Counted from the whole stretch's first letter, positions 1 through 46,493 are shown. The stretch: 55,691 bases of DNA, filler included, from Sphacelaria rigidula (GCA_964200075.2; 6 parts of 6 records of this genome joined end to end with filler, not necessarily neighbours in it), one strand, 5' to 3'. The notes: generated from the sequence alone by a model not told the origin. A program made the numbers and translations.

Positions 1-1252
1 CTCTCATGTGGGCGAAATTGCTGAAAACAAGCCCAATAGTGGGATCGCAGCCGGTTCGTTGAATGGTGCCGGTGCACGTTTTGTGGGGGGGCTATCTCGG
101 CATTAGTCGGGGGTGAGTAAGAAAACGTCTCCTGCTGTATCACATGCTTGCTCCATTCCCCGTGCTCTGAACTTCCGTGCAAGCCGTATGCATGTCGCGT
201 TTGTTTTATGTTGTTTGAGCTACTCGCTGTCTGTGTCAAGTTGTGCTCTCCACTCGTTCTTTGTGCAAAATATATGCTGCTGTGCTGACTCCAGGAGAAC
301 ACCACTGTCACCCCAACCGTTCCCGGCGTTTGGCCTCGAGTGCGCCCTACGCGTGATGATGGAGCTGGTGTCGTATGCGCCGGGGGAACGGAAACCCTTC
401 GGGCCTTTCGCCAATAGCATGTATATCTAAAAGACCAAACCGAGGGAACACCAGAATGGTCTTTTGGCTGCGGACTTTGGGGACAAGTATGTCCCCCGAA
501 CCAGAGTAATCCTAACCGTAATCCGGACTTGGGATCGTTGACAACTATGAAAGCCCGAGCGCAAGACCAAAGTTTGATCTTCACATCATCAAAGTCGGTA
601 GGGTCTTAGAAACCTAGTTGTTGAACCGAAATCGGGTGACATTCCGGTCTTGCTCTGTACTTCAAGACCGGATCCGATTTTGGCCCTGGCAAACACCCTA
701 TTCAAACAGCGCGTGGTTTCTCGTGATAATGAAGTTGTTAACAGTCACTTCACCATCAGTATCACGAAATGATTATCATTTTCCTTGTTTCCTTAAAACA
801 CCGCCATACCCTTTGGATGTAGAGCCGATACCGTGTATCGGCCGCGGCGTGACGCCTGCGGCGGTACGACCTGTTCACCGCACAGCGGCAGGGTTTAGGG
901 TGACAGAGCACACCGCAGAACGTCGCATCCTTTAGTCTATCCCTGTCCTGCATTGATTTCGCGTTGTCCTATGCAGTTCGCCACATCATGAGAGCAGCCG
1001 TTGTATCGCAGCCAAGGTGTACGTAGAGCAACATGAACCTCCTCGCGAATCGCTATGTTGCTACATCACATTTGTTTCAAGATGTCCTTGTTGCAGCTAC
1101 AGCGTGCGTTTGTCCCAAGTGGCGCACCCAGGAGTGGAAGGCCGCCTCCGCCGCTGTAATGGCTGCCTGTATCGTGGCCGAAGCTGTATGGTAACACAGC
1201 CGCGGCTGGCGCGCCCACACATACCGAAAGGTAGAGACCGGCGTCCAGATTC

Positions 1253-1374
1253 ATGGGACGACAACACCCACACAATACACTCGACGTTGCGCAGTACACT
1301 TTCCTCATACATCATGTTCGTACTGTCTGTAGGAATCTTTTGTCCACGGTTGTGTACATTTTCCATATATAATG
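1253..1374 (+). repeat. Diverged ~120-bp direct repeat, copy 1 (copy 2 at 8930-9043)
   Basis: ATGGGACG..CAACAC...TTGCGCAGTACACTTTC...TGTTCGTACTG.CTGT...TTTTGTCCACGGTTG.GTACATTT...TATATAATG is shared by both copies. Confidence 0.85.
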
Positions 1375-2874
1375 CAAAGGCAACATCTGGGCGAATTGCA
1401 GGGGAGGCAATCGCCGAAATATTCGCCTGCAAGCTCTGCTCCAGTGTACTGTCAGTTGATATCGCTAGAAGGACACTACCATAACCACCTTGCCGGCTGC
1501 CAGACTGTCACAGACTGTCAGGACGTAGGATCCGCTAGCATTGCTACTGTCTGTAGGGGGGTGTTGCCCACTTGTCAGGGACGTTTTGGAGCGTGATACT
1601 CGATGTAGATCATCCTTGTACATGGGCACCAAATGCTGGGGGTTCTTACTCAAGACTTCGATTTGGAGGATCATACCAGGTAGGCAGCGGCAACTACTGT
1701 GTGTCCAAGTGCCCCTTAGAGCAGGATGCGTTTGGCGTCCGTTTGACGAAGTTATTCCCAAAAAACCAAAATTGATGAGGGTTACAGACTGGAAAAATTT
1801 AGCAAAAACAATATCGCACGAACCACGACGCAAGAACCACGACGCAAAAAAACCCCAAGTCGAGGTTTTACCTGCAGCAGAAACCTACTTGACTTTGTGA
1901 AATTGGAAAATGCTTTGTCTTGTGTATAGTTCGAGTCACGTGTTTCATGTTAATGATAAAACTGCCTGTGCTGCAGTATGGTTGCGTCCTTGCATTCCTT
2001 GCCAAAAACTACGCTTCCCGCGCCTCGTACACAGTTTACGATAACCAGAGCATGTCGGTGGCGTTTGTATAATGCATATCCGTTTTGGAACTGGTACGCC
2101 ATACTATATGGAACAGCACGGAGCATGCGACAGTACCAGACCGAAAAAAAGCTGGTTCACCACACCTCCAAGTGCAACAACGACGGACTTGCTGGCATCT
2201 CTTCTGCGTGTTCACGAATCACGCGTGATAAAACATGATAAGCAATATCGTGACGGGCCGCCACAGGGGAGTGCTGTAGTGCATAAGCGCGCTGGCACGA
2301 TATTGGCAACACGGTAAATCGCGCACGCGCTAGCGCGCGTGCTGCTCGAAAATATCGCGCTTCGCGCGTTTAATTCAATTCAGTGCGTTTACTAAATCCA
2401 ATACAGAGGTTACTCTGTTGTGGGTGGGACTGGGGCCCGATTTTGGGTACTACATTTCGGGAAAATGGATCACGAACGCTACATACGTAAGAACTGGACC
2501 GTAATCGGGCGGATCATCTCTATCACAAATACACGCGTCACCTAAAAACAACGACCTGGCTCATATGAAATGTACTATATTTATAGTACATTTATTGAAG
2601 CCTGTGAGTGGTCGGTGTTGACATGATGCTGTTCCTGCGGTAAAATTGCCCCACATCAGTTAGTGGTGTCTCTTATTGCAAAATCAATACTGTTTGTCCA
2701 GCTGCTGCTGCTGTTCCACAACGGAAGCACACGCCCTCGAGGTGCCACCCCACGCCTACCGTCATTGCGAACATAACAAGATAAGAACACGAACTGCAGC
2801 AGTCGTGGCCGCCACACACAAACGTTACTGCAGTGAAACGTGCGCCTGACATATTGATATTTTGAACGACGAAG

Positions 2875-4890
2875 GTCGGAAATTGGAGACGATGAGCAGC
2901 AGCGTCGCATATATCGAAAGTACCATCACGATGATGGCGATGATGTTGACGAACAAGAGGTTCACGCCGTGCGGGTTGGCTGCGCGCTGCATGCCCTCCA
3001 CATTGCTGTGACTACGGGACTCGGGAACGAGCATTTCATGTGCCCCATGGGGTCAGGGTCTTGGCATGAGTGGGATGAATCCCATCTCGTCAGCCTTTTG
3101 GGCACCGTCTGGTACACCATGTCGAGGCCAGGTTCTTCTGCGTCAAATTTCGCCCAATTCCAAAATCTCGTAAGTGACAAATTTGGCATGAAGTGGAAAA
3201 ACGTTTCGTGCGCCCGGCCGAGACGAGATGGATGGTCGTATGGGAGGGAGCGACGCTACTCGACGAGCGCTGGGATCAGGTGCAGCGGGTATTGACCGAC
3301 TGGGCTCCTTCCTGTCTGTACAGTACCCACTTCAAACGGTATTGGCTGCAAGGCGCATTCATGATGGAGGAACCTGTGTTCAGACTCCACGCCAAGTTTG
3401 CCAAGGCACTCGGAGGAAAAGTGTTGAACTGGGCATACAACTGGTTGAGGAGCAAGGGTGGTTCTTTCCTCAAGCATGGTGAAGTGATGGAAGCAGCTGC
3501 CTCCTGGGATGCGTTTGGCGGAGGTGGCGGACTTCTCCCTCGAGTTCGTGCGGCGGTTGAGGGAATTGCGCAATAATCCCGACGTCCACTTCAAGGAGGA
3601 ACTGAACTTCGCTGACCAGCATCTCAACGCAGCAGAGGTGAGGTATGTTTTCGCGTTATGCGTTTCGACAAGTGTTTGGGTGATGAGCCATTCTTCGGCG
3701 TTGATACTTGTTGCTGCTTTGTTCAAGTCAGGACTCATTGGTGATGTATCGGCCAAACTGCTGTTGCCCGACTCACCATGCGGGTGCCTCCATCGAAAAC
3801 GTTTTTAAGGCATGGCTGTTTGCCCTGATGTCTGTCGCCACGACATAGCAACACCGCTGTCCTATCCGCGTGCCCACGAAAGGGATTCTATAGTAGTGGC
3901 TGCTCCACACGTATCACCGCGAAGCGCTTCATGCAAGGAGAGCAGTCTCAAAAGTGTAACGAAGCGCCTTGAAAATTTTGGGGTTATGATCTTTTGTGCC
4001 ATTCGTGTGGGCAGGCTGCGCTCTCTCGGGAGAACTTCGGAGAACGAGGGTTCTTTGCCGTTGTTGAGGGGAAATGGGAGAAATGGATGGGACCTCACCA
4101 GCATCTGCCCCTTAGTATGGCGCGGCTGGGCTGTCCGACTTTCTTCGTTGGATCGTGGGCGGGCTGTAAGCAATCGTACGAATATGCGGTAGGGCAAGAG
4201 TTTGCGGGTGCTTTTGGATCTGTGCTGTGGCCCGAAGAGTTCACAGAACCCTCACGGACATTGTACGAAGAGCAGTGTCGGGTTCTCCTGAAAAAGGACC
4301 TCGCCGATGCCAGCTCCACGAGAGAGAGGGATGAGCTGACACTTGGCTTGTTTTCAGCGTTCAACGAGAGTATCAACGAGAGTAAGGAGTTGAGGAGTGA
4401 GCTCAGGATGCATACGTCATCCGCGAAGGGAAGAGTTGAGCGGAGTAAGCATGCCGTGAAGGGTGTTTCGAGCTTCCGTACCCTTCCAGAGTTTCCTCTG
4501 ATTCATCGAGAGGTGTGTGTGCGGATTTACGTAGGGGTCGCGGAGCAACAACTCGTGGAGTCATTTTTCTCGAAATTTGACCCGTGTACGCTCAAGTCAG
4601 ATTCTAACGAGATGGGTCGTGTTCGCACGGGGCAGTACAAGTCTCCCGCGTCGGCCGACATGGGGAAGCGGCAAGCCCAGCCCCAACAAATCCGTGAGGC
4701 TGGGAAGACGGCGATACAGAAGGCGCAAGCTGCAAGTAGAATGACGCATGCTACGGTGCCATTCGAGCGGTCGCAACGCAAACGCCGTGTTGATGGGCGG
4801 GCCGTTTTGAGATCGTTGGAAAATTTGAAAAAGCCCAGGCACACGCCGGGAGTAAACAAATCATCGGGCGGAGGCTCGAGCAGCAACTGA
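2875..4890 (+). pseudogene. hAT-like transposase, C-terminal half (frameshifted, one intron)
   Basis: Exon ~2875-3637 encodes VRVGCALHALHIAV (CxxH, C at 2981), then after an A-run frameshift KRFVRPAETRW (TRW 3223-3231), with a second shift near 3495. Phase-0 GT-AG intron 3638-4014. Exon 4015-4890 contains QQLVESFFS (E at 4558-4560), matching the hAT ERxFS catalytic-Glu motif. Confidence 0.8.
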
Positions 4891-6635
4891 GATATTCGTC
4901 ACGGTATCCGGGGGGGAAAGGGGGAACAGCAGGATGAGTTTGCAATAGGAGATGCGTGTTGTAATGCGTTTCGCCCGTGTTGGGTGTTGTCGCAATCTTC
5001 AGTTGCCCCCGACTTTGGTTGAACTCTTCCTCTGCTGGTGGCCCACAGGTTGCCACGGCAATCACTCGAACAGCATTTAATATGAGATATTTCCCGTGAG
5101 TTTTACATCACGATATGATGTTCACACATTTTTCTTTATCTACAGGCAATCACGGTTCATATGTCAAAGCCGTGTCCACCTCGTGTTTCATCAGAAAAAA
5201 TGGCGACGCTGTCTGCGCTCTCGAGTTGTTTGCGCTTGGATCTTGGACGTGCAACATTCGCCGACAAACGGCAAAGTCACCCTCTGCGACACAACAGGCA
5301 CGGAGCTATCCGTGTTGAAGCGTGGTGTTGGTTGCAGTGCGCTCTTGCACGCAAGATCAACACATTGCGAGCCGTAACGTTATGAACGCTGTGCTAAGCT
5401 CTCTTCACTTCGAAGAACACGTGCTCAAAACTGCAGTGTAACGAAGAAAAGCATGGCATATATATTCTTTACCGTATAGATAGCCAGTGCGACCACATAT
5501 CTCAATGTCTTGATACGCATAGACTTCTGCGCTAGAGCGATTTTCAGAAATCAGCACCTGTCGTTTACGAACTCGCCCTCCGCAGCTCAAGGGTAAAAGA
5601 TACTCGTTCATGAATTGCGAAGCTGTTCTTTCTTTGCCGGCCGGTTATGGTTAGACCCGCGGTGCACATAGCAGACCACGGAGAAAACAATCAGGATGGG
5701 GGATTGATTGGCAGCAAAATATAGCACTTCGCAAGGAGTTGGTGAAAATTGACAAGTGGATAGTTGGTCCAAGTTGAACACTTTACATAGTGTACGCACG
5801 AAAATAAAAAAAGCTTAGCACACCCGCGCTTCTGTGCTGAAATTGTATACTGCAGGGCAACCCCGTATCGTTTGTGAACTAGCCCTTTGTTTTGCGTTTA
5901 AAGGGGTGAAGGATACTGGCTGTCGAAAGGCGACTTCGCCCTGTGTGAAAGGCCGCGCAGAACGAAGCGGCACCTCCTGTGACGCCCCGGCGTGACCTGC
6001 CGTCACAGGTTGGTCGTCGCAGAAAATTATCACGCCATGGAACACGAAGCTTGCTGACCTTGGAGTATTTTGCATATTTTTGTCATGTTTTATAGTATAC
6101 ACCGACGTCAGTTGTTCTAGAACCGATTACGGATGTCACCACCCAAAATGAGGCGGTACAAATACAAACATTCGCTTTCGATGCCTTGGCTCCAGCGCTG
6201 GAACCCTTGCACGCGAAACGGCCGCGGGCTTTCTCTTTCATCCGACGAATATCCCCTTGTGAGCAGCCACTGAAAATGATCACCAGCAATTGAAGGGCGG
6301 AATTGCGCACAGAAGAAAGGTGCGCCTACGGGTGCCGTCACAACCTTTTGCGGCAACCAAAAAACATGCACTTCAGACAAAAAGCAAATATGCGAGAGAA
6401 AAGCCAGGTGAAAACCAGCCACATGTACGGGCTGCAATCCCATCCGAACGACGAAAGCACGCCACATAATCAACACCACAGACTAGGCCTATGCTGCGCG
6501 CCGCTCACCCCGACTGTTGGTACGCAGCCGATCGTCTTTGCCTTTAACCCCATCCCTACCCCCGATCAACGATGTCTTCCTCCTTCTCCTTCGGCTTCGG
6601 GCCGTCAGTCGTGTGCGCTCCGTTTCCGGCACTTG

Positions 6636-8499
6636 TCAGCCATCTCCACGTTGAGTCGCTACTGTTGCGGGCATCTGCCTCCTTCTTTTCTTCTTGGTTT
6701 TGATGGTGGTGTCCTCGCCCCGAAGCTTCCGCCGCAATAGAGCAACGCCCCCCCCCACATCGGCAGAAACGGGTGCTGTGTTATCGCTTGGGACGAAAAG
6801 TACTTTTTCACGAGGGTATTTCAGGTCATTAACAACAGTGTCGTAGAAGAGGGAGGCTTGCGTCTCGGCTGTCTTGTCTTTCATGCTGCAGACACGAAAG
6901 AGCCCCCACCAAGGGGAGTCCGTTTCCTCGTGCCAAAAAGACACAAAAATGGGAAAATATTTATCCCCGTTCCGCAGATACTCGTCCGCTGCGATGAGCA
7001 AAAACGGCGCCGCCAAAATAGCGGCTCGGAGCTCTCCTGCATTGAGCTCCGGCATGCCGAGGGCAAGTATCTTGACCGTTTTTTGTCCAGCTTGATGCCC
7101 AACTCCTTCGCGTCCACGCCCGTCGCGAAGTCCAAGACACCATGTACCAAAGGTCCGGTGGAATTCAGCGATAAGCCGTGTTGTATCAAATGTTGACACA
7201 TCCGAGCACACCTCTCACCATACACCCCATCTGGTTTCAGATTTTGGAGCACCCCCTCTCGCATCACGCGGGCCTTCTCCTCTTCGGAGTCAACTTTTTC
7301 GTCGCCATTGGGCGGGGGGGGCCGTACAGGTGGCCTGGGTTCTTCATCGTGATTACGTCGTGCGCGGTCGATCTTGGCGTCGCGCCGGGCCACCTGCCGC
7401 AGAGTCAACAGCGACATCACGTCGTGTGTCAGGAGATATCGGCACCGTGAACAACATACAAAATATGAGCAAGCAATACACTGAATTCTGTTGTCTACTA
7501 CTGTAAATTTATATATGTAATAGAGCAGACGGTGAACAACATACAATCAGTAAAGACAGTCAATTTTGAAAAAAGTGGGATATCCGATACTGCAGCTGCA
7601 GCTCTGGGCTACTGAACAGACAGCTGTCGACTACTGCCTGTACTGTTGTTGTCCTGTGTACTTGTACTGACTGTCTGTAACAGCGGTAGTTCGCGTGTCT
7701 CACCAGCTTTTGAAGCTTCTTCTTCGCCACCCTTCCCTTCTTCGCCGACTCTCGCGCCACGTCTATGCTCCGCTCCAGCATACGTATCTTTCTCTTCTGC
7801 AGCACGACCTGACTATGAAGAGAATAACGAGATTGATCCAACTTGGCTTGCGGAGCGGGCGACTTCCTCAAAATGTCCATCTCCTCGAGAATATCTGCTC
7901 TGATCTTTTCCAACCTGATCACCTCATGTTGCAAGGTCATCAACTCCGTCTCAGCCGCCGTCGCTCTCGCCTCCGCCTGACAGCACCGCCCCCTCTCTTT
8001 TGACGACGCCAATTCTGCTGCGTGCCTTCGCTCTTTTTCTGACAAAAAGGCTACTTCAGCTTCACGCGCGACCGTCTCCGCCAACTTCAATTTTTCTTCA
8101 TCCTCGGCATTCCTCCTTTCCGCCAACATCAGCGATGCTTTCGCCGAGGCACACGCAGCCTGGCTTCCCTCCAACTCTTTCTTGGCCGCCTTAACCTCTT
8201 CGGCGGTGGACCTGACCTTTGCTGCAGCTTCCTCTACCCATCGACGCGACGCCTGTCGGCGGCCGGTCAACACAGCAGCGGCCACGTCTTGACCATTTTT
8301 TCCCTTGTATGTCGCTCAACTCCAGCTTGAATTCTCCTTCTTTTTCTTTGTCGAAACTCATATCTTTAAGAATTTGCCATGTCGGACCTCGAATAGCGCT
8401 ACTACTCCTCGATCCAAAAGTGCTGATCGCGCAACGCGTAGAACTAGGCGACGAAGCAGAGGATTGAACTGCAGTTTCTTGCGTGCGCTTCCCTCACAT
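6636..8499 (-). pseudogene. hAT-like transposase, N-terminal half with long coiled-coil leader (frameshifted, one intron)
   Basis: Possible ATG at 8499 followed by TGA; A-run shift near 8300; coiled coil to 7704; phase-0 intron 7703-7394 (CTG|GTGAGA...GCAG|GTG); A6 shift at 7079-7084; then FLLIAADE (D 6986-6984)...KDKTAETQASLF...LFVPSDNT (D 6785-6783)...GGVALLRRKL, the hAT RNase-H-fold pattern. Confidence 0.8.
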
Positions 8500-8929
8500 C
8501 CAAGCTAGGTCAACCCAATTCACCTTTTCGTTTGAGCCCGATACTGAGCCGCAACAAACGCGAAAATACAAAAATGAGGTGTTTTGCGCTCTGGGAGGGG
8601 ACTTTCTCGCCGCTGGCGCGACGCCAGGAAAATGTGAATTGGAATCCCGTAGATCTTGTGTGTATGCGGGGGGGTGTGAAGTGCCGTGGGCTGGCTTGCT
8701 TACTGTGTCGAGAACTGCGCGATCTCCCGTGCTATAGCTGTCCCATGGTCAACCAAGTTTATAAGTGATGAAGCGTGTGTTCTGCTCAAGAGGGCCTCGG
8801 CACAGGTACGACCACCTACTGACGTGTTCAGAATTCTTCCGTACTTCTGTTTTTTTTAGTTTGACGCTGATTTTTGGTCGTTAGGCCCTCCAGTCCCACC
8901 CATAACTGTGGGTGTGGAGCCAACAATAG

Positions 8930-9043
8930 ATGGGACGGCAACACACACAACACACTGACTTTGCGCAGTACACTTTCAACAACTTGTTCGTACTGACTGT
9001 GAAAGTATTTTGTCCACGGTTGGGTACATTTCCGTATATAATG
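8930..9043 (+). repeat. Diverged direct repeat, copy 2
   Basis: Aligns by eye with 1253-1374; lies 20 bp outside the right TIR. Confidence 0.85.
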
Positions 9044-9199
9044 GAGTGATGCTACGGTAGGGGTACAGAAATAATTTCTGAGGTTGGAATTGTTAGGAGC
9101 CCCCTATCTCATTCAAGACTTATGAAAATATGCGAGAGTACGCCAGGATTACTATTCCGATGTGCTGGGGATATCCCGAATAAATCTGCAAACGGGGAT

Positions 9200-9299
9200 N
9201 NNNNNNNNNNNNNNNNNNNNNNNNNNNNNNNNNNNNNNNNNNNTTAATTAATTAANNNNNNNNNNNNNNNNNNNNNNNNNNNNNNNNNNNNNNNNNNNN
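9200..9299. other. Artificial contig linker (N44-TTAATTAATTAA-N44)
   Basis: 100-nt spacer with stops in all six frames, identical at five positions. Confidence 0.98.
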
Positions 9300-16462: not shown

Positions 16463-18241
16463 TCACGTAGACCACGGATCAACACTGCGAGGGGTATACC
16501 CAGCCGGTAAACGACTTCGTAGCGTGCCGATGTCACGCAGGAGAACAGTTCCTAAAGATGCCGGCACCGCGATCTCGGCCTGCACGCTCTCTCTCGCACA
16601 CAGCTGTCGTTCGGAAGGCAGCGCGTACAGGCACAAAACGTCAACAAAGGCAATTGATGGTTAAGGAGGCACGCGGAAGATAAATAGGGCTAGACGTAGT
16701 TGGGCATTGGTAGGCTTTACCTCCGGCTACCGTCAACCGTTATTCCACTACCCATAATCAAGTCGAAATAACACTGACACTATAAGCAAATCTCAAATAC
16801 GCCAAACGTCAGGCTACGAAAAAAAACTGCCTTTTCCAACCCTGCTCCACTTTTCGACTTCTCCGGCGGCGCAAGGTTAGCACGTCATGGCCGGACGACT
16901 GAGTATGCGAATACCAAGGGCTAAAGGCTGTTCATTACTTGCTATTAAGATGGGCATTTGTAACATGCTACGCAGGACTTGACCTTGTACATACCTAGAT
17001 AATACACGGGCGGTTCACGGATAAGCGGGGAAGGCACATGCATCAGAGCAAAATAGTCCCAATCGACGCAAGCAGCACCCTTTCAAACCGAGAGTTTTGA
17101 TTTAAACAAACCTTTTTCATCTCATCAAAGTGCTATCGTATGATCAAAGAGGCGCTTGATTGTCTCCGACTCGAGCAAACCCCGCCCGAAATGTTCAAAT
17201 GTGCCAGGTTGATTCCACACCGACATATTTCCGTGTCTGCACACCGATGGCGAGCAAATAGTACTACTTCAGCCAAATCATTTCTCCACGGCGAACCTTC
17301 TGTTTTCAAAATCAACTCGTTGCCTTTCCTGAGATGAAGTCTGAGGATTACTCCTGCCCCCCTCCCCGCGCACCCTTTATATGTAGGATCGTAAGTAAGC
17401 AAAACGCTTTCGAAAACGATCACGTGTCTCTTTGATCATGCCACGGAACACTCGTGGGCCAGAGGAAGGACACAGAGTGAGATTTCTCTCGCCTGTCGAC
17501 GTCACTCAAGTATCGCGGTCGCAACCATCAAAGGAGAGGAGGCGGTCCACCGCAAACACCAACCAATACCGCTCCTCACCAGTCCCAACAAGACGCTCTC
17601 CTGCAGTTCCCAACCGAGTGAAATTGCCCCAACCATCCCCGCTACCAAGCAGTCCCCGGCTCCGGTGCAGTCCACCAATACCCCAGGTGTCCCTCCACTC
17701 TGCGGCGGCAACGGCAACGCCGGGTAGTGCTTCGCGGACAGCTCAAAAGACGACCCCGAGTGAGCGGGTATCTCTACCAAAGTGGGGTTGTTGCTGGACC
17801 GATTGCTCCTAGTCTTGTTGCGTTCGGGCACAGCAGAAACGCGCCGCGCGGAGGCGACGAGCACACCGGCGCTCCCCATGGTGACGACCACGTGTTTTGA
17901 GCCATCGTCCAGTGCCGGACAGGGGGCTGATGAAGCCGCGGAGGACAACGCGCCATTGAGTTCAGCGTCAGCATCCGAAGGGGGCGACCCGTCATGAATC
18001 ATGGCCATCAACACGGTTCTCAGCGAGTCGCCAAGCGGCCTGGCGTCGAGGAAGCACCCCTCCGCAGATAGCGCTGCCTGCGCCAGCTGATGACCCGCCC
18101 GCCTCGAAGCGGCGGGCTCTTGGGAAAGCTCCGCCACGGATGGAGAGTCGCGAAAATCCTTCCATGCTCGGGAACGGCCCGTCGCAGCGGCAGCAGCCAT
18201 GACTGCGAGCTCGTCCAGGTTCGGAGTCACCACGGTGATCC
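16463..18241 (-). CDS. PfkB/ribokinase-family kinase (pseudouridine-kinase-like), last two exons
   Basis: Exon 18241-17580 has VVTPNLDEL, VVVTMGSAGV and the PfkB signature VDCTGAGDCLVAG. Phase-0 intron 17579-16604. Terminal exon 16603-16463 LCARESVQAEIAVP..*. 5' part lies beyond the contig. Confidence 0.9.
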
Positions 18242-18498
18242 CTGCTGCAGTCTGTGCAAAATATTTTGAGCACACACATCATGATATTGGGCGTGAGAAT
18301 TCACGGCAGTGGAGAGGTCAACATCAAAAACCTTCATCTTACTTTCAGCGGTCGTATACTTGACCATGCATGCCAAGAGGCGATGAAACTTCGACAGGCA
18401 CTGGTGGGAATTTTTGCTCTTATGTGTGTGTGTGTGTTGTCGTCCCATCTATTCTGGGCGCCGGTCTACACCTTTCGGTATATCTGGGCGCACCAGCC

Positions 18499-18598
18499 NN
18501 NNNNNNNNNNNNNNNNNNNNNNNNNNNNNNNNNNNNNNNNNNTTAATTAATTAANNNNNNNNNNNNNNNNNNNNNNNNNNNNNNNNNNNNNNNNNNNN
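18499..18598. other. Artificial contig linker
   Basis: N44-TTAATTAATTAA-N44. Confidence 0.98.
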
Positions 18599-24600: not shown

Positions 24601-26613
24601 TTTGCTCACAGTCATTTTCAAGCCAGAGATGGATGAGCTTGAAGTATCAGCATGTAGGTGATCAGAATCTTTGATTTCAAAGTCATCGACATCACAGGCC
24701 AACCCATTAAGCATCACCCGGGTTTCCCCCCGCGTCCTCGAAGAGCTTGATACGAGTTAATGGCCACGAACAAACTAGCTTTCACCATAAGAGATGTTGT
24801 GTCCGTGAGATCTGTGAGTAATTGTTTAAATTCGACCTCGAATGCGAACCCAGGGCATATTCCTGGGTCTTGTACGAGCGTTTTTTCATTTTATTTTTTT
24901 GATTGTTGTTAGTTTAAGGGCCGGAAGACGATCAATCGTTTCAAGACTGCACGTCCCTGTCCTGTCGCAGCTCCTATGGGTGGCAATCAACTACGCGAGC
25001 CTTATTTCCCCCGCCTCTGGCTATACTAAAATAAAGAAGCATTGTTCATAGGATGGCTCCCACGTGAGAGGGATTCCCCGCCCTCTCGGAAGCGATCGGT
25101 TGCGCGGCGAAGACAAAACACACCCATGCCGGTCGTTCTTGACTGTGCTGCCCAAAGTGTAATTTCTGACGATGTCCGAAGATTATCACGATCTCACGAA
25201 ATCTCGCGCCTTGATCACAAGTGATGATGACCAATCCTCACCACCCGGAAACAACACTTCAACGTCGGTACAGGTTTCGCGAGAGGGATTCCAAAGCATC
25301 GACGAGTACCTTGAGAACCACCGCAACGTGGACAGGCACAAGTGGGTGACCCAGCCCCACCTGGAGAACATGAAAGACTACGAGCTCATGACTAACCGCG
25401 TGGAGTGGGCTTACCCTACCCAGACGCGAGAGTTCGTTGCTCTCGACATCATCGACCGCAAGAGGAAGATCCTGATTTCCAAGAGCTCGCTCCACCCCGA
25501 CCGCCCGGGAGGCAGCCGGTACCAAACTGCAACGGAATTGGATGAGTCTGAATACGTGCGCGCGGTGCAGTACTACGCGTCTAAGGTGGAGCCTCTGCCC
25601 AACGGACAATGCCTGCTGCGCATGGTGACGTGGGGAGAGATGTGCGACAGTTACACGGCGTTCTGGGTGAACAAGTTTAACGCACACGTGTTCATCACCC
25701 CCAAGTTCCAGCGTTTCAGGTGTGTTTTCATCACGATGTCGTGTGTTACGCCCTCACGCCTTTGGTGTGGAGGTATGCTTTTGATGTGGGAGGGGCGGCG
25801 CCGGAGGGTGTGTACTTGGATTTCATGGGCGACAAGCCTTCATTGGAAACAATCTTGTGAGCCTTGCTCCAACGCCTCATCTCTCCGCCGGTATTTACTG
25901 ACCAGCTTTATTCAGTGTGCAAGCTCAACCCCCAATAGCAACATCCTTGTTCCGTCTGTTCTAATCCCCTGAGTCACTTATAGTGTTCACCCGAAGCAAT
26001 TTTTCGTTGTTGTCGCATTTTTCTAAGTGACAACCAACGGGGTACCTGTGGCGTCTGGTGCCAAAGTGACGGGTGTTTCGGCGTGTGTGGCGAGGACGGT
26101 TGGCTTTTGGCCAGTGTTTGTTTGTGTGTGCTTGCGCTATTATATTTCATCACCGTATGTAAAAGAAGAAAAGATCCCCGAATGTGTACATTGGAACATT
26201 CCTGCAGCTCATCAACAGGACGCAACAGCCTTCCATGCTCTGCTTTGATGGTGGTTTCTGGACAAAATAATCTGAGTGAGATGGGAAAATGGCGGGAGTA
26301 GAGGGGAGGGTATGGTGCTAGAAATGAGAGATACGGCACCCCTTGCGTGCATGCATGAACGCGCGTTTTCTCCTCTGCTTTTGCGTATGTGTGGACGGCT
26401 CTTTTTTCCCTCAGGCGTGTGATGGGCGGGGAGAAGGTGTTCGAGCTCAGCAACATTGTCAACGAGGCGTGGAAATTACCCAAGCTCCTCATGATCAAGC
26501 CTGACCACGCCGTGGCTAAGGGATCGAACTTCGTCGACAACTTGCGCAACCAGGGCATCGACGCTGCCGCCGCCAAGAAGGCGGCGAAGCAGGCCGAGAA
26601 GCAGGATGCGTAA
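21619..26613 (+). CDS. START/SRPBCC-like lipid-binding domain protein with bipartite plastid-targeting peptide (complete, 393 aa)
   Basis: Exons 21619-22155, 25274-25719 and 26415-26613 splice in frame (1182 nt). Signal peptide + DAF motif. START-type motifs DGWTKVLEEDGIFV, PTQTREFV, HPDRP..YVRA, VEPLPNGQCLL. Confidence 0.88.
24205..24280 (-). repeat. Fragment of the 47265-48940 repeat family in the START gene intron
   Basis: CGCATCCCTACAAAGCC.GGACGG.GCACGCC.GGG is the reverse complement of the unit core. Confidence 0.7.
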
Positions 26614-27797
26614 AAAACATCAAGTCTCAATGATTTCTCGCCGAAATTATCTGGGCTTGATCATTCTCGCCTACTTGACACGTGAACGGTACCCGGCGGT
26701 AATGGTAGGGGTGCTGCCCTGCACAAGCTCCACGACGTTGACTTTTATCAACGTTCTTCGTCACGAGACTGTGATTTGAACCCTGGTTCGTTCCTCCATC
26801 TTTTATCTGCCCCTTGTCCTGTAGGGGGTACTGCGGTGCCTGTTGTGTGCATCCGATCCACCAGCCTGAGCAACGTCCCGGCGGCGTGCGTGCGCTCGTT
26901 GTTGCATTGCTCCTCTTTAGTTGAAGAAGGTCATTGGGGCGGCATGGATGACGAATCACAACCTGAAAATCTGGATGCTTTTTTTCTTGTTCCTCGCCTG
27001 TTGTTAATCTGGTGGGTTTGCAATAATTGTTGGAGTGTTTACTCTCAACCCACCACCCCCCTAGGATCTCAACTTCATCCACTTGTTGTAACGGTTGCAT
27101 CTAGACGTTTTGTCATCGTTTTTATTATACCCTCGTGAAATGAAGAGGGTTGGTTGCTGTGGGTTGGAGGTGAAGGTTTCTAGATTCGTGCTTGACTTGG
27201 GGGGCGATGGTGTGTCAACGTGAGAGATGCCAGCCTGCAGTGCTGGTCCCGACAGACATGCAATAAGTGTAAATTGGCAGGGATGGTTGGGATTTTTTTC
27301 AAACGGGGACCGATGGTACCCGTGGTTTTCAAAAATAAATTGAGCGATTTTGAGAAGAATATGTGAAGCGTTCGTGTTCCTTGAGCTTGCTTGGGCTAGC
27401 ATTGTGGGTATTCAATATTCTTCATTTTCTCAAACGTGATGGAATGTGCTCTGCTGAAAAAAAAATCCATTCTCATCTGACTGGAGGATTAGTGAGTACC
27501 ATTGCTGCAGGGCACGGTTCCTCCCGTCTGGCCCCGTTCCTGTCACGTGCGTTTTTTTTTCTCGTCTCCTTCAACCGTCGACAACGGCCCCAACTCACAA
27601 TGTCCAACATCGCCCCCCCCCCATGGCCAACTTGGCTTGTTGGGAATTGCCCTGTTTCAAGTGACAGCACGCGGACGTCAGAATATTGTATGAAATCTAG
27701 GCCAGCAGGAACCCCTCACGAAAATCAAGTCAAGTCGAGTGTGTGTATGTCGTCGCTGATCCGTTTGCAAAGTGACGCCGCGATAGCCCCCCCCCCC

Positions 27798-27897
27798 NNN
27801 NNNNNNNNNNNNNNNNNNNNNNNNNNNNNNNNNNNNNNNNNTTAATTAATTAANNNNNNNNNNNNNNNNNNNNNNNNNNNNNNNNNNNNNNNNNNNN
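27798..27897. other. Artificial contig linker
   Basis: N44-TTAATTAATTAA-N44. Confidence 0.98.
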
Positions 27898-27913
27898 GGG
27901 GGGGGGGGGGGGG

Positions 27914-28185
27914 TGTACTCATTTGCTGCTTGCCTCAGTCGTTTGACCATTGACCACGCATCCCTTTCGAAGCGGAGCACCGTTCCTACTCCTAATAGAG
28001 ACACCTCCAACATTCCGGTGCTCATTACGTTTCTTCCATACATTGCACAAAAACATTCTACATATTTTATCCCCGTCCTGTTTCGCCGTCTATGGCCACC
28101 ATCTATCTCCCAGTATAGCAATCGTTCTCTCCATATCGTCTAACGCATCAAACGATTTCACGCCAGCTTGTGAGTGTTTTACTGC
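27914..28185 (-). mobile_element. 3' end of a non-LTR retrotransposon (LINE), 5'-truncated
   Basis: Reads VKSFDALDDMERTIAILGDRWWP*TAKQDGDKICRMFLCNVWKKRN..GCVVNGQTTEASSK* then a homopolymer. The same terminus recurs at 55547-55691. Confidence 0.7.
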
Positions 28186-28241
28186 CATCACATCGGATGC
28201 TTGCTTGCTCCGCAGTGTGAAATATGATAATGACAACTTAC

Positions 28242-31200
28242 AACGTTAGTGGCCATCTCCATCTGGATGATGTGCGTCACTGAAGGAACGTCGATGCCCC
28301 TGAAAACAATCGGAGTACCAGCACAAGGCAGCAGCCAAATAACCGCGACGGCAGGCATACACGCGCGCGCGCATACACACCGAGAAACGAACACACAAAA
28401 AAAGGCACAGGTGAAGGGGAAAGGAGGAAGATCCTGAGCAAGTGGAACTGGACTGATACATAATGCCACCACTTCATTTCATTCACCGATAGGACGCATC
28501 AGAGTTCACACGAGTTGACTCCCCATGAAATGGCAGGATCATACCTGTAAAAATTGTTGGTCCCGCTGAGTCAAGAGTGGATGACACATATGCAGTGCAG
28601 GCATCTTGCGCGCATTACAGATGGGAGAAAAGTACACGTGATTCAGGGCCCATGAAATGACACCATTCAACCTCATGAAGTTGTTGTCCCTACATTAACC
28701 CGGAGGTGGGAAAAATATGCGGGTGCTCACCTCGAACGGCTCGGTCGAGCAAGGTGTACGTGACGTTCCCATCTCATGATGGTAAGAAGTGTGTGGCATG
28801 TACAATCGATTCATCCAAATTGCAGTGCGGGGGATGAATATGTACCCATTATTTACCCCGTGTTCACGGAAGGTAGGAAACAGGTACCTTTGACATGTAC
28901 TGTACGACTCACGAGCTGAGAAGCTGTATAAATTCCAAGTCATGTACGAATAGTATGATTCATTCGTTGGAATGATGAACATGAGTTGGATCACGATTAT
29001 ATTCGTCCTAACCGTGATTTCATTGTTCATTCTGTAGTCATCATCGACACAGCACCAAGGTAAACAGCCACCACCACCACAACAGCAACGGCAACGACAA
29101 TAACAATAACAATAACCAAATAAAAAACATGACAATACGACAAAAATGACATGAAAAAAATGACAAAATAAAAATGACAAAAAAAAGTGAAAGCACAAGA
29201 AATAACGTAACGACGAAAACGAAAAACTGACGAAAGAATAAACATGGAACGTGTGTAAGCACGTATATCAAACAGACGAACAAACAAACAAAACTAGAGG
29301 AAAGACGAGGAGGGACGGTGATGATGAATGAGACGCGAGGAGATGGAAAATCCCTGCCGTAACCTTGAGTCACGTCATCCCACAATTCCAAGCCATGCTC
29401 TGAAATATCTCGGCACTACGACCACACCAAAACGAGACAAATAGATAAAAAAGACGAGCATACAAATAAAAGAAATGGGGATCATCGATACAAGAAGCGC
29501 TGAGCAGAAAAATATGACCAGCACATCCTACTGCACACAATCAATACCTTACTCGTCTACAGCTACCGTTCACCCCGCGGGCCACATGTACGCAATGGTG
29601 GATAAAGACACGGTAGCATGCGTAGTACTCCCGCCCCTCCCCGCCGCCTGTTTTTGGCCAGTTTTGGGACTTCTGAAGAATGACGCATGACAGACCTGAT
29701 ACGAGCCCCCCTTTGCTTGCTTTCCTATTTCTCACCCCGCGGTATTTGCCATTGTAATCTCTTCTGCAGTGTGTGGAATTTTTCGGGCTATGAAAACTGG
29801 GAAACCTGATACGAGTGGAGTACCCTTGCTATCATCTGTCACTCCTACCCTCACCTCGCGGCCAGATCGGTGCACACTAATATCTTGGCCCTGCCGCTCC
29901 TGAGGGCCTGTAGGTTCTGCATGCGCTCGAGCGGCACGATGTCCTTATGATAGGGCACTACCTCGAATCCCTCCTCCTCCAGCGCATCGCACGCACGCTT
30001 CAAAAACATAAAATATAAACATTCAGGCAGGCAGCATGCATGCAAAACAGGGATGTAGGGAAGAAAAAATGCAAGAAAAACGAGCAAAAACACACCCACG
30101 CAAAACAAACAGCTGAACCGCTGAACACCCGGTACCCGCAAAAACAAAAACGCGGGGTGCGATACATGATATCGTATCGAGATGCCGCGCATTTGGGGGG
30201 GGGTATCGATGTGATATACCCCGAATATATCGGGGTAGATATATCGATATTTGGGATATGATATCCATCACTAATGTGAGCGCGGTAATGGCGAGGGCGT
30301 GCTGATGATAGCCATGATCCAATCCTCGACAACGAAATGTCGGGAAGGTACCGCATCGGGGGGGGGGGGGAGAGATGGGTTGCCCGATTCCTTGAGACCT
30401 ACAAGCTCGTCCCGAGGACTGGGAACGGAGGTCAAAAATGATGGCGACAAAAACAAAAATGATAGTCCGTCCATAATGTGCAATACAGCAAGCAACGCAC
30501 CTGACAGGAGGCGGCCGTGTTGGCGAACAGCATGGTCCTCGTCATATCCGCTCCGCTCTCTGCCAGCCATCGACAAACGGCAATTTCAAACATTATCATC
30601 ACAGCGATGGCAACAAAATGGGAGCGAAGTACAGGCTGGTTCACGCTCATCACCCAAATTTGTGTCATCAGCAAATGTTTTTCGCAATACCTACCCAATA
30701 ATCGCATGCATGATATCGTACTGACCGCCATGGACAGCTGTAGAGCGTGACATAGCCGAATCTGTGTGTAAGGCCATAGTGGTAGCGCTGAGGGCGAACA
30801 GGTATATCGACCAATCAGCGTCCGTCAAGTTCTTCCGAGATCGAAATTTCGAATTCCAAGCCCAACTTTCACCCAATCTCCATGTGTTTCAAATCGTAGT
30901 GACCGCCTTCGGCTCAGGAATCTAACGGAAAAAAAATACAATTTGAAAACGGTTAGGGCCCTTCTTAACCAAGGGGATAATCTCCTTTTTCCAAATCCCC
31001 TTTCGGAAAAACGACCGCTGATTGGTCGCTGCGATACCACCCTCCGAAAAAAATCCTCTCAACGTGCACAGAAATCCCCTTTTGGAAAGGGGTTTTATGT
31101 GCACCTCAAGGGGGAACATACATGTCCCGTTGACAGGGACACATGCAAAGACTTACCACACAATCCAACACAATCAAAGCTGAACCTGAGGAACTTGGTG

Positions 31201-33849
31201 GCCCCGCAAACCAAGAACACACTGCTCGAGCCCTAGCTGATCATCAGCTGTGCACGTTGTGCGNNNNNNNNNNCTGTGTAGAACCCATTGAGAAATGATG
31301 AATTGTGTGAGACGCGCGCACTGCACACGCTTACAAAACGGTCAGCAACGACACGTTTTCGGTTGTTTTTGACACGCACGCGGCCGCCATTCGTCCAATA
31401 CAGAACGGATTTCCGTAAAACATAGACTGCCGTGTCAATTTTAGCAAGGCCTACCACTGAAACTAGTGCGCGTGAGTGGTGCGTGTCTGTGCGTGTTTTT
31501 TCAGGGCTGGGGCTGGGTGTGTAGGTGTTGTGTTGCCTTGTTGCTTCTTGCCTGCGGCATTACACAGACCTTGAACCTGCTTGGACTAACGACAACTTCT
31601 AGACCCGCCGCATGTCTCAACCTGCGTGCAGATCTGGGTTCCAATCTGTACAAGACTGCTTGTCAATAGGACTCGGGACTGGTCGTTATGGGGCCAATCC
31701 CCTGTCAAAAGGGAATTGTGAAAAAGGGGATAATCCCCTTCATTAAAAAGGGCCCGTACTACGGGGGTCGGATAATACCCGAAAACGTGATGTTTCGGCG
31801 ATGTCGGGTGTTGGCGTCGTCTAATTTCCACCTATGATACGCACGAAAGACCCAGGGAGCCTCGTGACGGTTTCCCCTATATATGTCGTAGAAAAGCTCA
31901 GATCGCCGTCAAACTTGGCAGTTCCGTAGGTATTGATAATCTAGACGGAAACATTGTATTCTTCACAACATTTCAAACCCTCTCCGTTCTCTGCCTGCTT
32001 CCGGGTATCTCAGTGTGAAGACCCCCGGAAGCCAGTACAGGATACATCGAAAGAATAAAAATAAGAATGATACAGTCCAAGGGACATATGTACAAAGTTT
32101 GGTCGAGGAAGACGGAAACTTCATACAGCTTTCCTTGCCGTTACGTTAAATTCGCCCCGACAGACGTTTTATTCTAGAACCAAGTAGTTAGGAGTTGCAC
32201 GTGTTAAGCTCACGTGATTGCACAAATGCGCGAAACTTGACGCCGTTTTTAGAAGTTAAACTCTGAAACTTTGCGCAAATACGCTACGGCTCCTTAAGCA
32301 ACTATCGGTGGACGAGGTTTTTTATTCTTCGACTATTTTACCGTTTTTCGGGGGTCCGACGGGATCCAAGTTTCCCCAAGAAATCTGGGACCCCCGGAAA
32401 CGGTAAAAAGAAAATTAGGGTATGAAAACCTCGACCTTCGAAAGTTGCGTAGTGATCCATAGCCAACTTCTGCAAAATTTCAGGATTCAACTCCTAGAAA
32501 CGGCGTGAAGTTTTGCGGATGAATGTTTTTAGGTTGACAAGCGTGAACCAGCCTGTAGTGTCTATTTGTCCTCTGCCTTTTTTCATTTCTGTCTCCGCTT
32601 TTCTTGAGGTTTCTTCAACGGCGTCTGTTTCAATCAAAATGGCAGTACCTTCCTTCCGATACCTACAGTACGTCCATCCTGTGAGTGGCTAGACTACGGC
32701 TGGGTTCGTAGCGGAGCCGCTGATAGTAATGTGCGAAAATGGATAAGATCAAATCGAATCAAATCACATCAAATCAAATCAAATCAAATCAAATCAAACT
32801 AAGTAAATAAAATGAATAAAATCAGTCAAACTAATCGAACCAATCGAACCAATCGAACCAATCGAACCAATCAAATCAATCAAATCAAACGAATCAAATC
32901 AATCAAATCAATCAAATCCATCACAGAAATCGAACAAACCAAGCCTTATCATATCACATCACATCAAATCAAATCAAATCATTCCGGGAGCCTCTAGCCT
33001 TAAGATGCCGTTGCATGAAACAACTTCAAGTTCGGTTGATCTTATCTCTCATCCGCCTGGTTCCCGCATCTTCATACGATAAACTCGAGTCTTGATCGAC
33101 TTATTCTATTGCAGCTTCCATCCGATAGATTCTGTAATAGCCACCCAGGCCGAATTTTCCCTCCCTCACCTCTGAGCAGGTCTATCACAGCGTTAATTTT
33201 TTCGTAAACCTTCTCTCCGATCTCGATAAACTCCTAGACAAACGAAAAAAAGGGAAAGAGGGTCAAAACCGAGACAAAAAAGGGAGGAAAAGCGCGCAAA
33301 CTTATTGACACAGCAAAATCCATTCCGACGCGGGCATGAAATCAAGTTGCCTAGTTTGAACAAAACCATGAAACTACGCGAAAAAAACGCAGGCCAGCAT
33401 GCAGAAGAATCGTAGAAAACATAAAGCTAATTTGATATGAAATAAATCAGATCACACGAATAGTCGGAAGTCTGCGCAACTTAGGCGTGAGGGTGCCGCG
33501 GACGCGAGAAAACATGGCTTACGCACGAAACGCGGAGCAGCCTACTGTATGTGCAAAAGAGAGGTCCACAGCGGCAGGCAAGGAACAAGCTGCGGTACTG
33601 TGGCACAGAACACCACTGGCGCATGTCATGCTGCAAAACCTTCAACGCTACTAGTACTGCTGCTGCTGCTGCTGCAGCAGCAGCTTTTGTTCAAATCATA
33701 TCAAACAAGGAAAAATCTTGCCTGCTGTATGGCCGGGTGGTGCTTGTGCATCAAATCCCGCTCTATTTTGCGCGCATCCGGGAATGCTCGCTTGATGTAC
33801 TGGTCCACGGACTTCAACCCGTAGGTGGGAAGTGTAGCCGCCGCCAGCA
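28242..33849 (-). CDS. DEAD-box RNA helicase (plant RH22-like motif variants), internal exons
   Basis: Exons 33849-33722, 33233-33170, 30559-30501, 29997-29855 and 28299-28242 join in frame: VLAAATLP (motif III), TMLFANT (IV), YHKD..ER, LVCTDLAAR|GIDVPSVTHIIQ (V). Motifs I/II and VI not found in the contig. Confidence 0.9.
28484..29016 (+). mobile_element. ~530-bp non-autonomous element with CACGGTTAGGACGAAT-type TIRs (CMC/Chapaev-like ends)
   Basis: CACCGATAGGACGCATC..ATTCGTCCTAACCGTG; ATT on both flanks; colinear with 39962-40502. Confidence 0.8.
32210..32546. repeat. Long imperfect palindrome (foldback/MITE-like)
   Basis: Arms pair throughout, e.g. AAACTTGACGCCGTTTTTAG / CTAGAAACGGCGTGAAGTTT and TTTTACCGTTTTTCGGGGGTCC / GGACCCCCGGAAACGGTAAAA. 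Confidence 0.8.
32748..32980. repeat. (AAATC)n / AATCGAACC microsatellite
   Basis: Direct inspection. Confidence 0.95.
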
Positions 33850-37095: not shown

Positions 37096-37195
37096 NNNNN
37101 NNNNNNNNNNNNNNNNNNNNNNNNNNNNNNNNNNNNNNNTTAATTAATTAANNNNNNNNNNNNNNNNNNNNNNNNNNNNNNNNNNNNNNNNNNNN
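37096..37195. other. Artificial contig linker
   Basis: N44-TTAATTAATTAA-N44. Confidence 0.98.
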
Positions 37196-46096: not shown

Positions 46097-46185
46097 GTGA
46101 GTATGCCTCCTTCGATCTTTTACGTTTTCCTCTTCCTCTTCTTTCCCTCTTTTTTTCACACGTTAGTTTCCATTTCGTCCCTTCA

Positions 46186-46393
<208 letters not shown>

Positions 46394-46493
46394 NNNNNNN
46401 NNNNNNNNNNNNNNNNNNNNNNNNNNNNNNNNNNNNNTTAATTAATTAANNNNNNNNNNNNNNNNNNNNNNNNNNNNNNNNNNNNNNNNNNNN
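46394..46493. other. Artificial contig linker
   Basis: N44-TTAATTAATTAA-N44. Confidence 0.98.

Follow-up and report, generated by a model that had tools for sequence, protein, structure and literature searches.

We analysed a 55,691-base window of DNA from the brown alga Sphacelaria rigidula (GCA_964200075.2), the window being the whole stretch under study, composed of six stretches of ~9.2 kb. A transposon-like element bounded by terminal inverted repeats (TIRs) lies wholly within the first of these (1-9199). Two genes converge inside the element. The right-hand gene, on the minus strand, encodes the first part of a candidate Asp-Asp-Glu (DDE) transposase, here called the N-half, and the left-hand gene, on the plus strand, encodes the remaining part, the C-half. 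The features are as follows, in order along the window.

2413-8910: the element, 6.5 kb, TIR to TIR.
2413-2433, plus strand: left TIR, 21 nt, with an exact 13-nt core at 2421-2433.
2434-2891, plus strand: left subterminal region, presumed promoter and 5' untranslated region (UTR) of the C-half gene; high-copy.
2892-3637, plus strand: C-half exon 1, with ATG at 2892, acidic head, the predicted strand with CxxH, and ETRW.
3638-4014, plus strand: C-half intron, GT-AG, 377 nt; donor GTGAGG at 3638, acceptor CAG at 4012-4014.
4015-4890, plus strand: C-half exon 2, with the remaining helical domain, the candidate catalytic Glu and the tail; TGA stop at 4888-4890.
4891-6635, no strand: spacer between the two stops, a high-copy repeat at ~5072-5460 and from 6422 onward (to 6779), interrupted by ~960 bp (5461-6421).
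6636-7393, minus strand: N-half exon 2, with predicted RNase-H-like strands, the first and second Asp (D1 and D2), a helix and a Lys/Arg-rich tail; stop at 6638-6636.
7394-7703, minus strand: N-half intron, GT-AG, 310 nt; donor GTGAGA at 7703-7698, acceptor CAG at 7396-7394.
7704-8361, minus strand: N-half exon 1, a long coiled-coil-like helical region; putative start codon ATG at 8361-8359.
8362-8889, minus strand: right subterminal region, presumed promoter and 5' UTR of the N-half gene; high-copy.
8890-8910, minus strand: right TIR, 21 nt, with the core at 8890-8902; the inward reading starts CACAG.

Repeat detection recovered the two ends as arms at 2417-2433 and 8890-8906 (17 nt, 94% complementary), and a comparison by eye of the 21-nt ends (2413-2433 against 8910-8890) gave 18 matching positions out of 21. 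The 13-nt core TGGGTGGGACTGG has exactly two occurrences in the window, one per strand, against an expected count of 0.08; two copies were reached in 1 of 100 shuffles. These figures bear out the pair of inverted repeats that a first reading of this DNA, made from the sequence only, had proposed as the bounds of the element. The termini read CACAG on the right and CTCTG on the left.

The motifs of the catalytic core are divided between the strands. On the minus strand AADE (D1, 6992-6981), SDNT (D2, 6788-6777) and a GGVALL helix (6752-6735) all fall in one open reading frame (ORF), 6636-7214, and between the repeats this strand encodes only the two-Asp part of a putative RNase-H-like core. The plus strand between the repeats encodes only the CxxH, RW and Glu motifs, namely CALH at 2981-2992, ETRW at 3220-3231 and VESFFS at 4555-4572; both Asp residues are absent there. 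The two sets are convergent and non-overlapping, just as the sequence-only reading had placed them, and 1745 bp separate the N-half stop from the C-half stop. The charged extensions that it had noticed at the break are also present, a Lys/Arg-rich tail after the N-half core and an Asp/Glu-rich stretch upstream of the CxxH strand in the C-half. Its gene starts, put at ~400-460 bp inside the TIRs, have to be moved: the likely ATGs lie 479 bp inside the left end (2892) and 549 bp inside the right end (8361).

Relatives of both halves show the same division. Scanned with HMMER for the N-half ORF, 1.84 billion representatives yielded 44 proteins (45-507 amino acids, aa), and a profile of the C-half first exon gave 37 matches. 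With cluster members included, 95 brown-algal relatives were compared (blastp, E <= 1e-4): 47 match the N-half only, 48 match the C-half only, and none of the 95 matches both. All of them share one break point. N-half conservation ends a few residues past the helix that follows the second Asp and gives way to low-complexity Arg/Gly/Lys tails; 16 of the 47 N-half proteins run on for at least 40 residues beyond the conserved core, and a CxxH-like motif occurs there in none of the 16. The strand-plus-CxxH pattern is found in 24 of the 48 C-half proteins, and in all 24 a Met stands 7-94 residues upstream as the start, the stretch from this Met to the pattern being unconserved and acidic or Ala/Pro-rich. 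C-half starts among 20 distinct clusters begin with MAD in five and with MS in six. Identity to the window copy is 34-84% in the N core and 33-74% in the C-half pieces. The candidate catalytic columns are kept in both sets of relatives (N-half: D1 14/16, D2 20/22; C-half: Cys 15/15, His 16/17, Trp 20/20, Glu 4/4).

Annotated gene models joining the halves number 0 of 19 (5 N-half, 14 C-half) in Ectocarpus siliculosus, Ectocarpus sp. CCAP 1310/34, Ectocarpus sp. 8, Pylaiella littoralis and Sphacelaria rigidula. At least eight near-identical C-half models sit on different contigs in Pylaiella, indicating that the family is multi-copy there, and the N-half is annotated in Ectocarpus siliculosus as an 'expressed unknown protein'. 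Judged from its named relatives the family is brown-algal, and by the blastp comparison above the split is a trait of the family, not a peculiarity of the window copy. The sequence-only reading had set a split family against a one-off inversion or a misassembly, and had looked to other copies for halves colinear on one strand; with 0/47 and 0/48 relatives carrying the other half, and the same break throughout, the family side of that choice stands. One protein, P0010 (CAB1107038.1, Ectocarpus sp. CCAP 1310/34), has the first part of an N-half fused to ~200 unrelated residues, probably because the gene model is a chimera drawn over a nested insertion.

A metagenome scan with the N-half profile found one 5.1-kb contig (L001), with a match of only 19 residues and without the C-half; viral-contig scans with both halves and a word-index search with a 305-aa C-terminal ORF gave no match. 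No second copy of the element was found within the window by blastn or tblastn, and an Rfam search of 1-9199 gave no match.

ORF 3973-4890 covers C-half exon 2 and is 42% identical to residues 215-467 of P0092 (tblastn), and the spliced Ectocarpus models P0061 and P0092 cross the same junction as the C-half intron. N-half exon 1 is covered by ORFs 8191-8493 and 7560-8315 and is weakly similar to the coiled-coil N-terminus of P0009. Past the N-half stop the minus-strand frame 6504-6635 stays open and reads as Arg-rich low-complexity sequence, to which the longer tails of relatives can be aligned; because the frame continues into such a tail, the stop is possibly premature in the window copy.

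Both genes are broken by frameshifts. Those of the C-half lie at ~2920-2932, at 3196-3200 (an A run) and at 3491-3493 (from a three-frame read). The C-half pieces of the window are colinear with the relative P0045, at 59-71% identity, only with frame changes at ~3197 and ~3492. The frame of ATG 2892 differs from the CALH frame, but its first residues match the start of the Sphacelaria rigidula protein P0073, and therefore a third frameshift lies at ~2920-2932. In the N-half gene a frameshift in the A6 run 7084-7079 is required by all relatives, and a second probably lies in the A6 run 8301-8296.

We compared the window with contigs of four sequencing runs, X1, X3, X6 and X7, of which X6 and X7 carry an RNA label that is a guess. 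Homopolymer errors of long reads are ruled out as the source of the frameshifts by contigs of other runs that match the window without gaps across ~2925, ~3197 and ~7080 (X3 record 8, X1 record 4 and X7 record 28, the last covering 6920-7390). Because the match is gapless at three frameshift sites, the frameshifts are real; three of them disrupt the C-half gene and one or two the N-half gene, and the window copy is dead. X6 record 17 covers 6815-7330 with no differing letter and two gaps (514 letters to 516 bases); if both missing letters fall in the A6 run 7084-7079, the X6 sample would hold an in-frame N-half.

The same contigs give an account of copy number. Single-contig depth in X1 is 59-84. 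Summed X1 depth is 90-430 over the C-half coding body (3120-4827) and 150-230 over the N-half coding body (6780-8243), which suggests a few copies of the coding bodies at >=80% identity. Depth rises to 26,000-32,000 over 2388-2875 at the left end and to 23,000-61,000 over 8244-8975 at the right end; over the ~0.65 kb at each end the summed depth is 8,600-61,000. High-copy ends around low-copy coding bodies make a pattern as for an autonomous element with many deletion derivatives. Diverged contigs stop at the repeats. The match of a 1766-nt contig (X1 record 1) starts at 2421, and that of X7 record 29 stops at 8906 with 228 further letters unplaced, indicating that similarity in other copies ends there. 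Outside the right repeat the flank is another repeat, 8916-9043; a copy on the same strand, 82% identical, lies at 1253-1374, and another at 18462-18423. Summed X1 contig depth reaches ~1.4 million over 8976-9199, the final 224 bases of the stretch, far above the rest.

In all four runs contigs join 5461 straight to 6421, so the ~960 bp between these points are either an insertion here or a deletion elsewhere. X1 record 6 (1879 nt, ~96% identical) spans 4990-6870 in one piece and therefore represents a second copy or allele with the same spacer-to-N-half junction. Contigs of X6 and X7 match 6445-7390 and 7701-8301 exactly and leave the C-half body almost uncovered. The match of X6 record 19 starts at 7701, with 85 letters unplaced; since the intron and the next exon both begin GTG, this start fits spliced RNA over the intron 7703-7394. 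It is a weak hint of spliced N-half RNA, weak because the RNA label of X6 is only guessed.

The AlphaFold model of the N-half (predicted local distance difference test, pLDDT, 71) has strands at 72-76, 79-81, 84-86, 89-95 and 100-106, a helix at 116-130, a strand at 138-142 and a helix at 156-164, with the Asp residues right after the first and the last strands. In this model the order of strands and helices is as expected of an RNase-H-like core. Weak N-half rows in Foldseek are all RNase-H-fold proteins, with the Hermes transposase (8sjd_B) at rank 9. The C-half model, built on P0092 (pLDDT 60), is confident over about 1-210 (to 220) and all helical. Among 48,161 PDB representatives it best matches the Hermes transposase, model residues 1-220 being aligned with Hermes 275-421 (root-mean-square deviation 4.0 over 142 residues), at Z 6.8, which is under the caution level for helical models. 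Language-model neighbours are FAM200-ZBED5_RNase-like and DUF4371 for the N-half and ZBED1_RNase-like_helical, DUF659 and hAT-like_RNase-H for the C-half; their scores of 0.77-0.86 are below 0.9 and make them leads only. An ESMFold2 complex pairing the N-half core and the first exon of the C-half (P0045) scored 0.00, a neutral result, given no family alignments and an uncertain partner fold.

As described in passages of PMC4763223, hATs have a DDE motif, an insertion domain between the Asp residues and the Glu, a CXXH motif (Hermes H268) and W319, so that Hermes 275-421 lies after the CXXH and contains W319. The window family shares the motif order D, D, CxxH, conserved Trp and a Glu past a putative helical insertion domain, and the window element has short terminal inverted repeats. 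It differs in having its catalytic core split over two genes, one on each strand, whereas in hATs the core is one polypeptide with the CxxH shortly after the second Asp. It also differs in its coiled-coil N-terminus, in the low-complexity charged extensions at the break, in matching no hAT family at the sequence level and in showing no 8-bp duplication. The long N-half models P0005 and P0009 have basic, coiled-coil-like N-termini with no zinc-finger Pfam match at E <= 1 that could be a BED finger, and the hAT dimerisation domain likewise has no Pfam match. The hAT label given by the sequence-only reading is thus weakly supported, by motif order, the Hermes fold match and the language-model neighbours, and finds no backing in Pfam or in PDB sequences.

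Together our data suggest, with a probability that we put at about 0.55, that a brown-algal family of TIR transposons, of which 2413-8910 is a decayed 6.5-kb copy, has a DDE transposase, most hAT-looking in character, encoded by two separate, convergent genes. On the sequences compared, the transposase of the family is naturally split and probably has two subunits. We hold more tentatively, at a little under even odds, that this is an old, still selected cut-and-paste family in which the core is cut between the second Asp and the CxxH strand, and in which the only active site has to be put together from the two products by strand complementation.

Such a family may have arisen from an ancestral single-gene element by an internal inversion with one breakpoint in the loop that leads from the second Asp to the CxxH. 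The inversion would have put each half beside one end of the element, and each gene would then be driven from its own subterminal region. The N-half product, of ~470 aa, would consist of a coiled-coil N-terminus, the first core strands and helices with both Asp residues, and a basic Arg/Gly/Lys tail. The C-half product, of ~540 aa, would begin at its own Met with a short acidic or Ala/Pro-rich head, supply the next core strand with the CxxH, and continue into the helical insertion domain with the conserved RW and then the helix of the catalytic Glu. We propose that the two proteins associate, the C-half strand completing the N-half sheet, perhaps aided by the basic tail and the acidic head at the break. 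The complex would rebuild one D-D-E site and carry out the cut and paste of elements bounded by the 21-nt repeats.

Several observations weigh against this reading. At the ends, no target-site duplication of 2, 3 or 8 bp stands beside the repeats at 2413 and 8910 (a 3-bp one being classical for EnSpm/CACTA elements); the immediate flanks are TA and GG over 2 bp and TTA and GGT over 3 bp, and an 8-bp repeat is also absent around 2415 and 8908, in what is a single old copy. The left flank outside the repeat is high-copy as well, so depth alone does not mark the left end. In the proteins, a Pfam search at E <= 1 with eight window ORFs and eight relatives gave rows at chance level and no hAT family, neither half matched CACTA-type Pfam transposase families at E <= 1, and searches of PDB sequences, by single ORF or by profile, brought up nothing relevant. 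With Foldseek neither model has a PDB match at E <= 0.001. What the N-half does match in fold is generic, either RNase-H-like or actin-like, with Hermes at rank 35 (Z 3.7), and the C-half score calls for the caution noted above. The Glu column comprises only four sequences. The starts and ends of relatives are in part set by method, because ORF callers begin at Met and most relatives come from short contigs (many of 1-3 kb). The whole convergent, TIR-bounded layout is seen only in the window copy, which is itself dead; one diverged contig (4990-6870) repeats part of it. No intact colinear relative that could be the ancestor appears among the 1.84 billion representatives of the N-half scan.

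Of the other explanations, we take most seriously one that keeps the split family and drops the two-subunit enzyme, and still regard it as unlikely. The inversion would then be old and its carriers would be passengers, moved in trans by an unseen intact relative, or one or both halves would serve a different purpose, for instance binding DNA, regulating or inhibiting transposition, or doing some work for the host. The decay of the window copy would suit it, as would the listing of the N-half among expressed proteins in Ectocarpus siliculosus. A curated Ectocarpus library, as described in passages of PMC12477816, contains many DNA transposons whose transposase genes are pseudogenes and whose movement is presumed to be driven in trans. 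Yet the residues of the DDE site are kept in both halves, which is hard to explain without catalysis, and no intact colinear relative came up among the 1.84 billion representatives of the N-half scan. Furthermore, the break as modelled interrupts the core sheet, so that a complete domain is not expected from either half by itself. That the two halves are chance neighbours, fragments of two different truncated elements or genes lying tail to tail with a 21-nt repeat that is not a true end, we judge improbable. The missing duplication fits this idea, as do flanks and a middle that are mosaics of other repeats and ends with no subterminal motif in common beyond the repeat core. Against it, the halves are exact complements of one predicted fold broken in the same loop, the 13-mer core occurs only at these two sites and inverted, the same ~0.65 kb high-copy pattern marks both ends, and matches of diverged contigs stop at both repeats.

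We give very little credence to an internal inversion or misassembly peculiar to a single dead copy of an ordinary single-gene hAT-like element, which the sequence-only reading had raised. That the window copy is dead is true, through frameshifts which that reading had not foreseen, and 4800-4990 is unbridged among the contig matches listed (a few of ~22,700 pieces). The split is nevertheless not unique to this copy: colinear relatives number 0/95 across several genera, C-half relatives have conserved starts and N-half relatives have tails of their own, and contigs of other runs agree with the window over 2792-3413, 3044-3446, 4990-6870 and 6445-6862. Just as remote is joining at the RNA level, in which convergent transcripts would be trans-spliced into one mRNA. 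Nothing speaks for it directly, except that both genes appear to be spliced, with GT-AG introns. The trans-spliced transposase that had been suggested is not supported: both halves start with a Met and end at a stop of their own, the stretches that separate the conserved parts are long, variable and low-complexity, and no joined form occurs among the annotated models.

In ProtoRAG and Transib-like elements, convergent RAG1-like and RAG2-like genes lie between TIRs and both products are needed together; there the DDE core is complete in one protein, and the second serves as an accessory subunit. The window family resembles them in having two convergent genes within TIRs and differs in that its core itself is cut in two. 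The likeness to RAG1L/RAG2L elements drawn by the sequence-only reading thus holds for gene orientation only, because the RAG catalytic core is undivided. In the bacterial Tn7, TnsA and TnsB have complete, unrelated nuclease folds, each cutting one strand; there too the transposase consists of two different polypeptides, but its subunits are not pieces of one fold. Counterparts by description are EnSpm-1_Ec32 and EnSpm-2_Ec32 of the curated Ectocarpus library, for which passages of PMC12477816 give the same two-gene layout and 21-bp CAC.. termini. The window copy has two convergent genes with one GT-AG intron each, and its C-half lacks both Asp residues; N-half relatives of the window family also occur in Ectocarpus. 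The two EnSpm families are 12-15 kb long with a 2-bp duplication, whereas the window copy is 6.5 kb with none visible. Compared by description only, the window family may belong to the same group.

To our knowledge, every described eukaryotic cut-and-paste transposase has its DDE core in one polypeptide, and we know of no two-gene element that does more than add an accessory protein to an undivided core. A search of open-access papers and bioRxiv found no report of a eukaryotic DDE transposase with its core divided between two genes. If the proposed reading is true, an RNase-H-fold recombinase can work as a heterodimer of fragments, and one inversion within a transposon can create a new gene architecture that is still spreading. 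It would amount to a natural protein-fragment-complementation transposase with a built-in two-input switch on transposition, and so to a natural model for split-transposase tools that need two inputs. It would also put names to 'expressed unknown proteins' in brown-algal annotations.

The rest of the window holds features of other kinds. Its six stretches are separated by linkers, each made up of the 12-base word TTAATTAATTAA, a stop in all frames, between two runs of 44 N; the linkers occupy 9200-9299, 18499-18598, 27798-27897, 37096-37195 and 46394-46493, a regular spacing of ~9,299 bases. Because of these joins, stretches that follow one another here possibly lie apart in the genome. Gaps of 10 N occur at three points, 10408, 31264 and 34658, and a tandem repeat with a period of 14 (2.4 copies) occupies 1815-1847. 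An ORF at 17502-18278 on the minus strand matches PfkB carbohydrate kinase (E 7e-10) and one at 45710-46393 on the plus strand matches NUDIX hydrolase (E 5e-7); from their sequence, both frames look like ordinary host gene exons.

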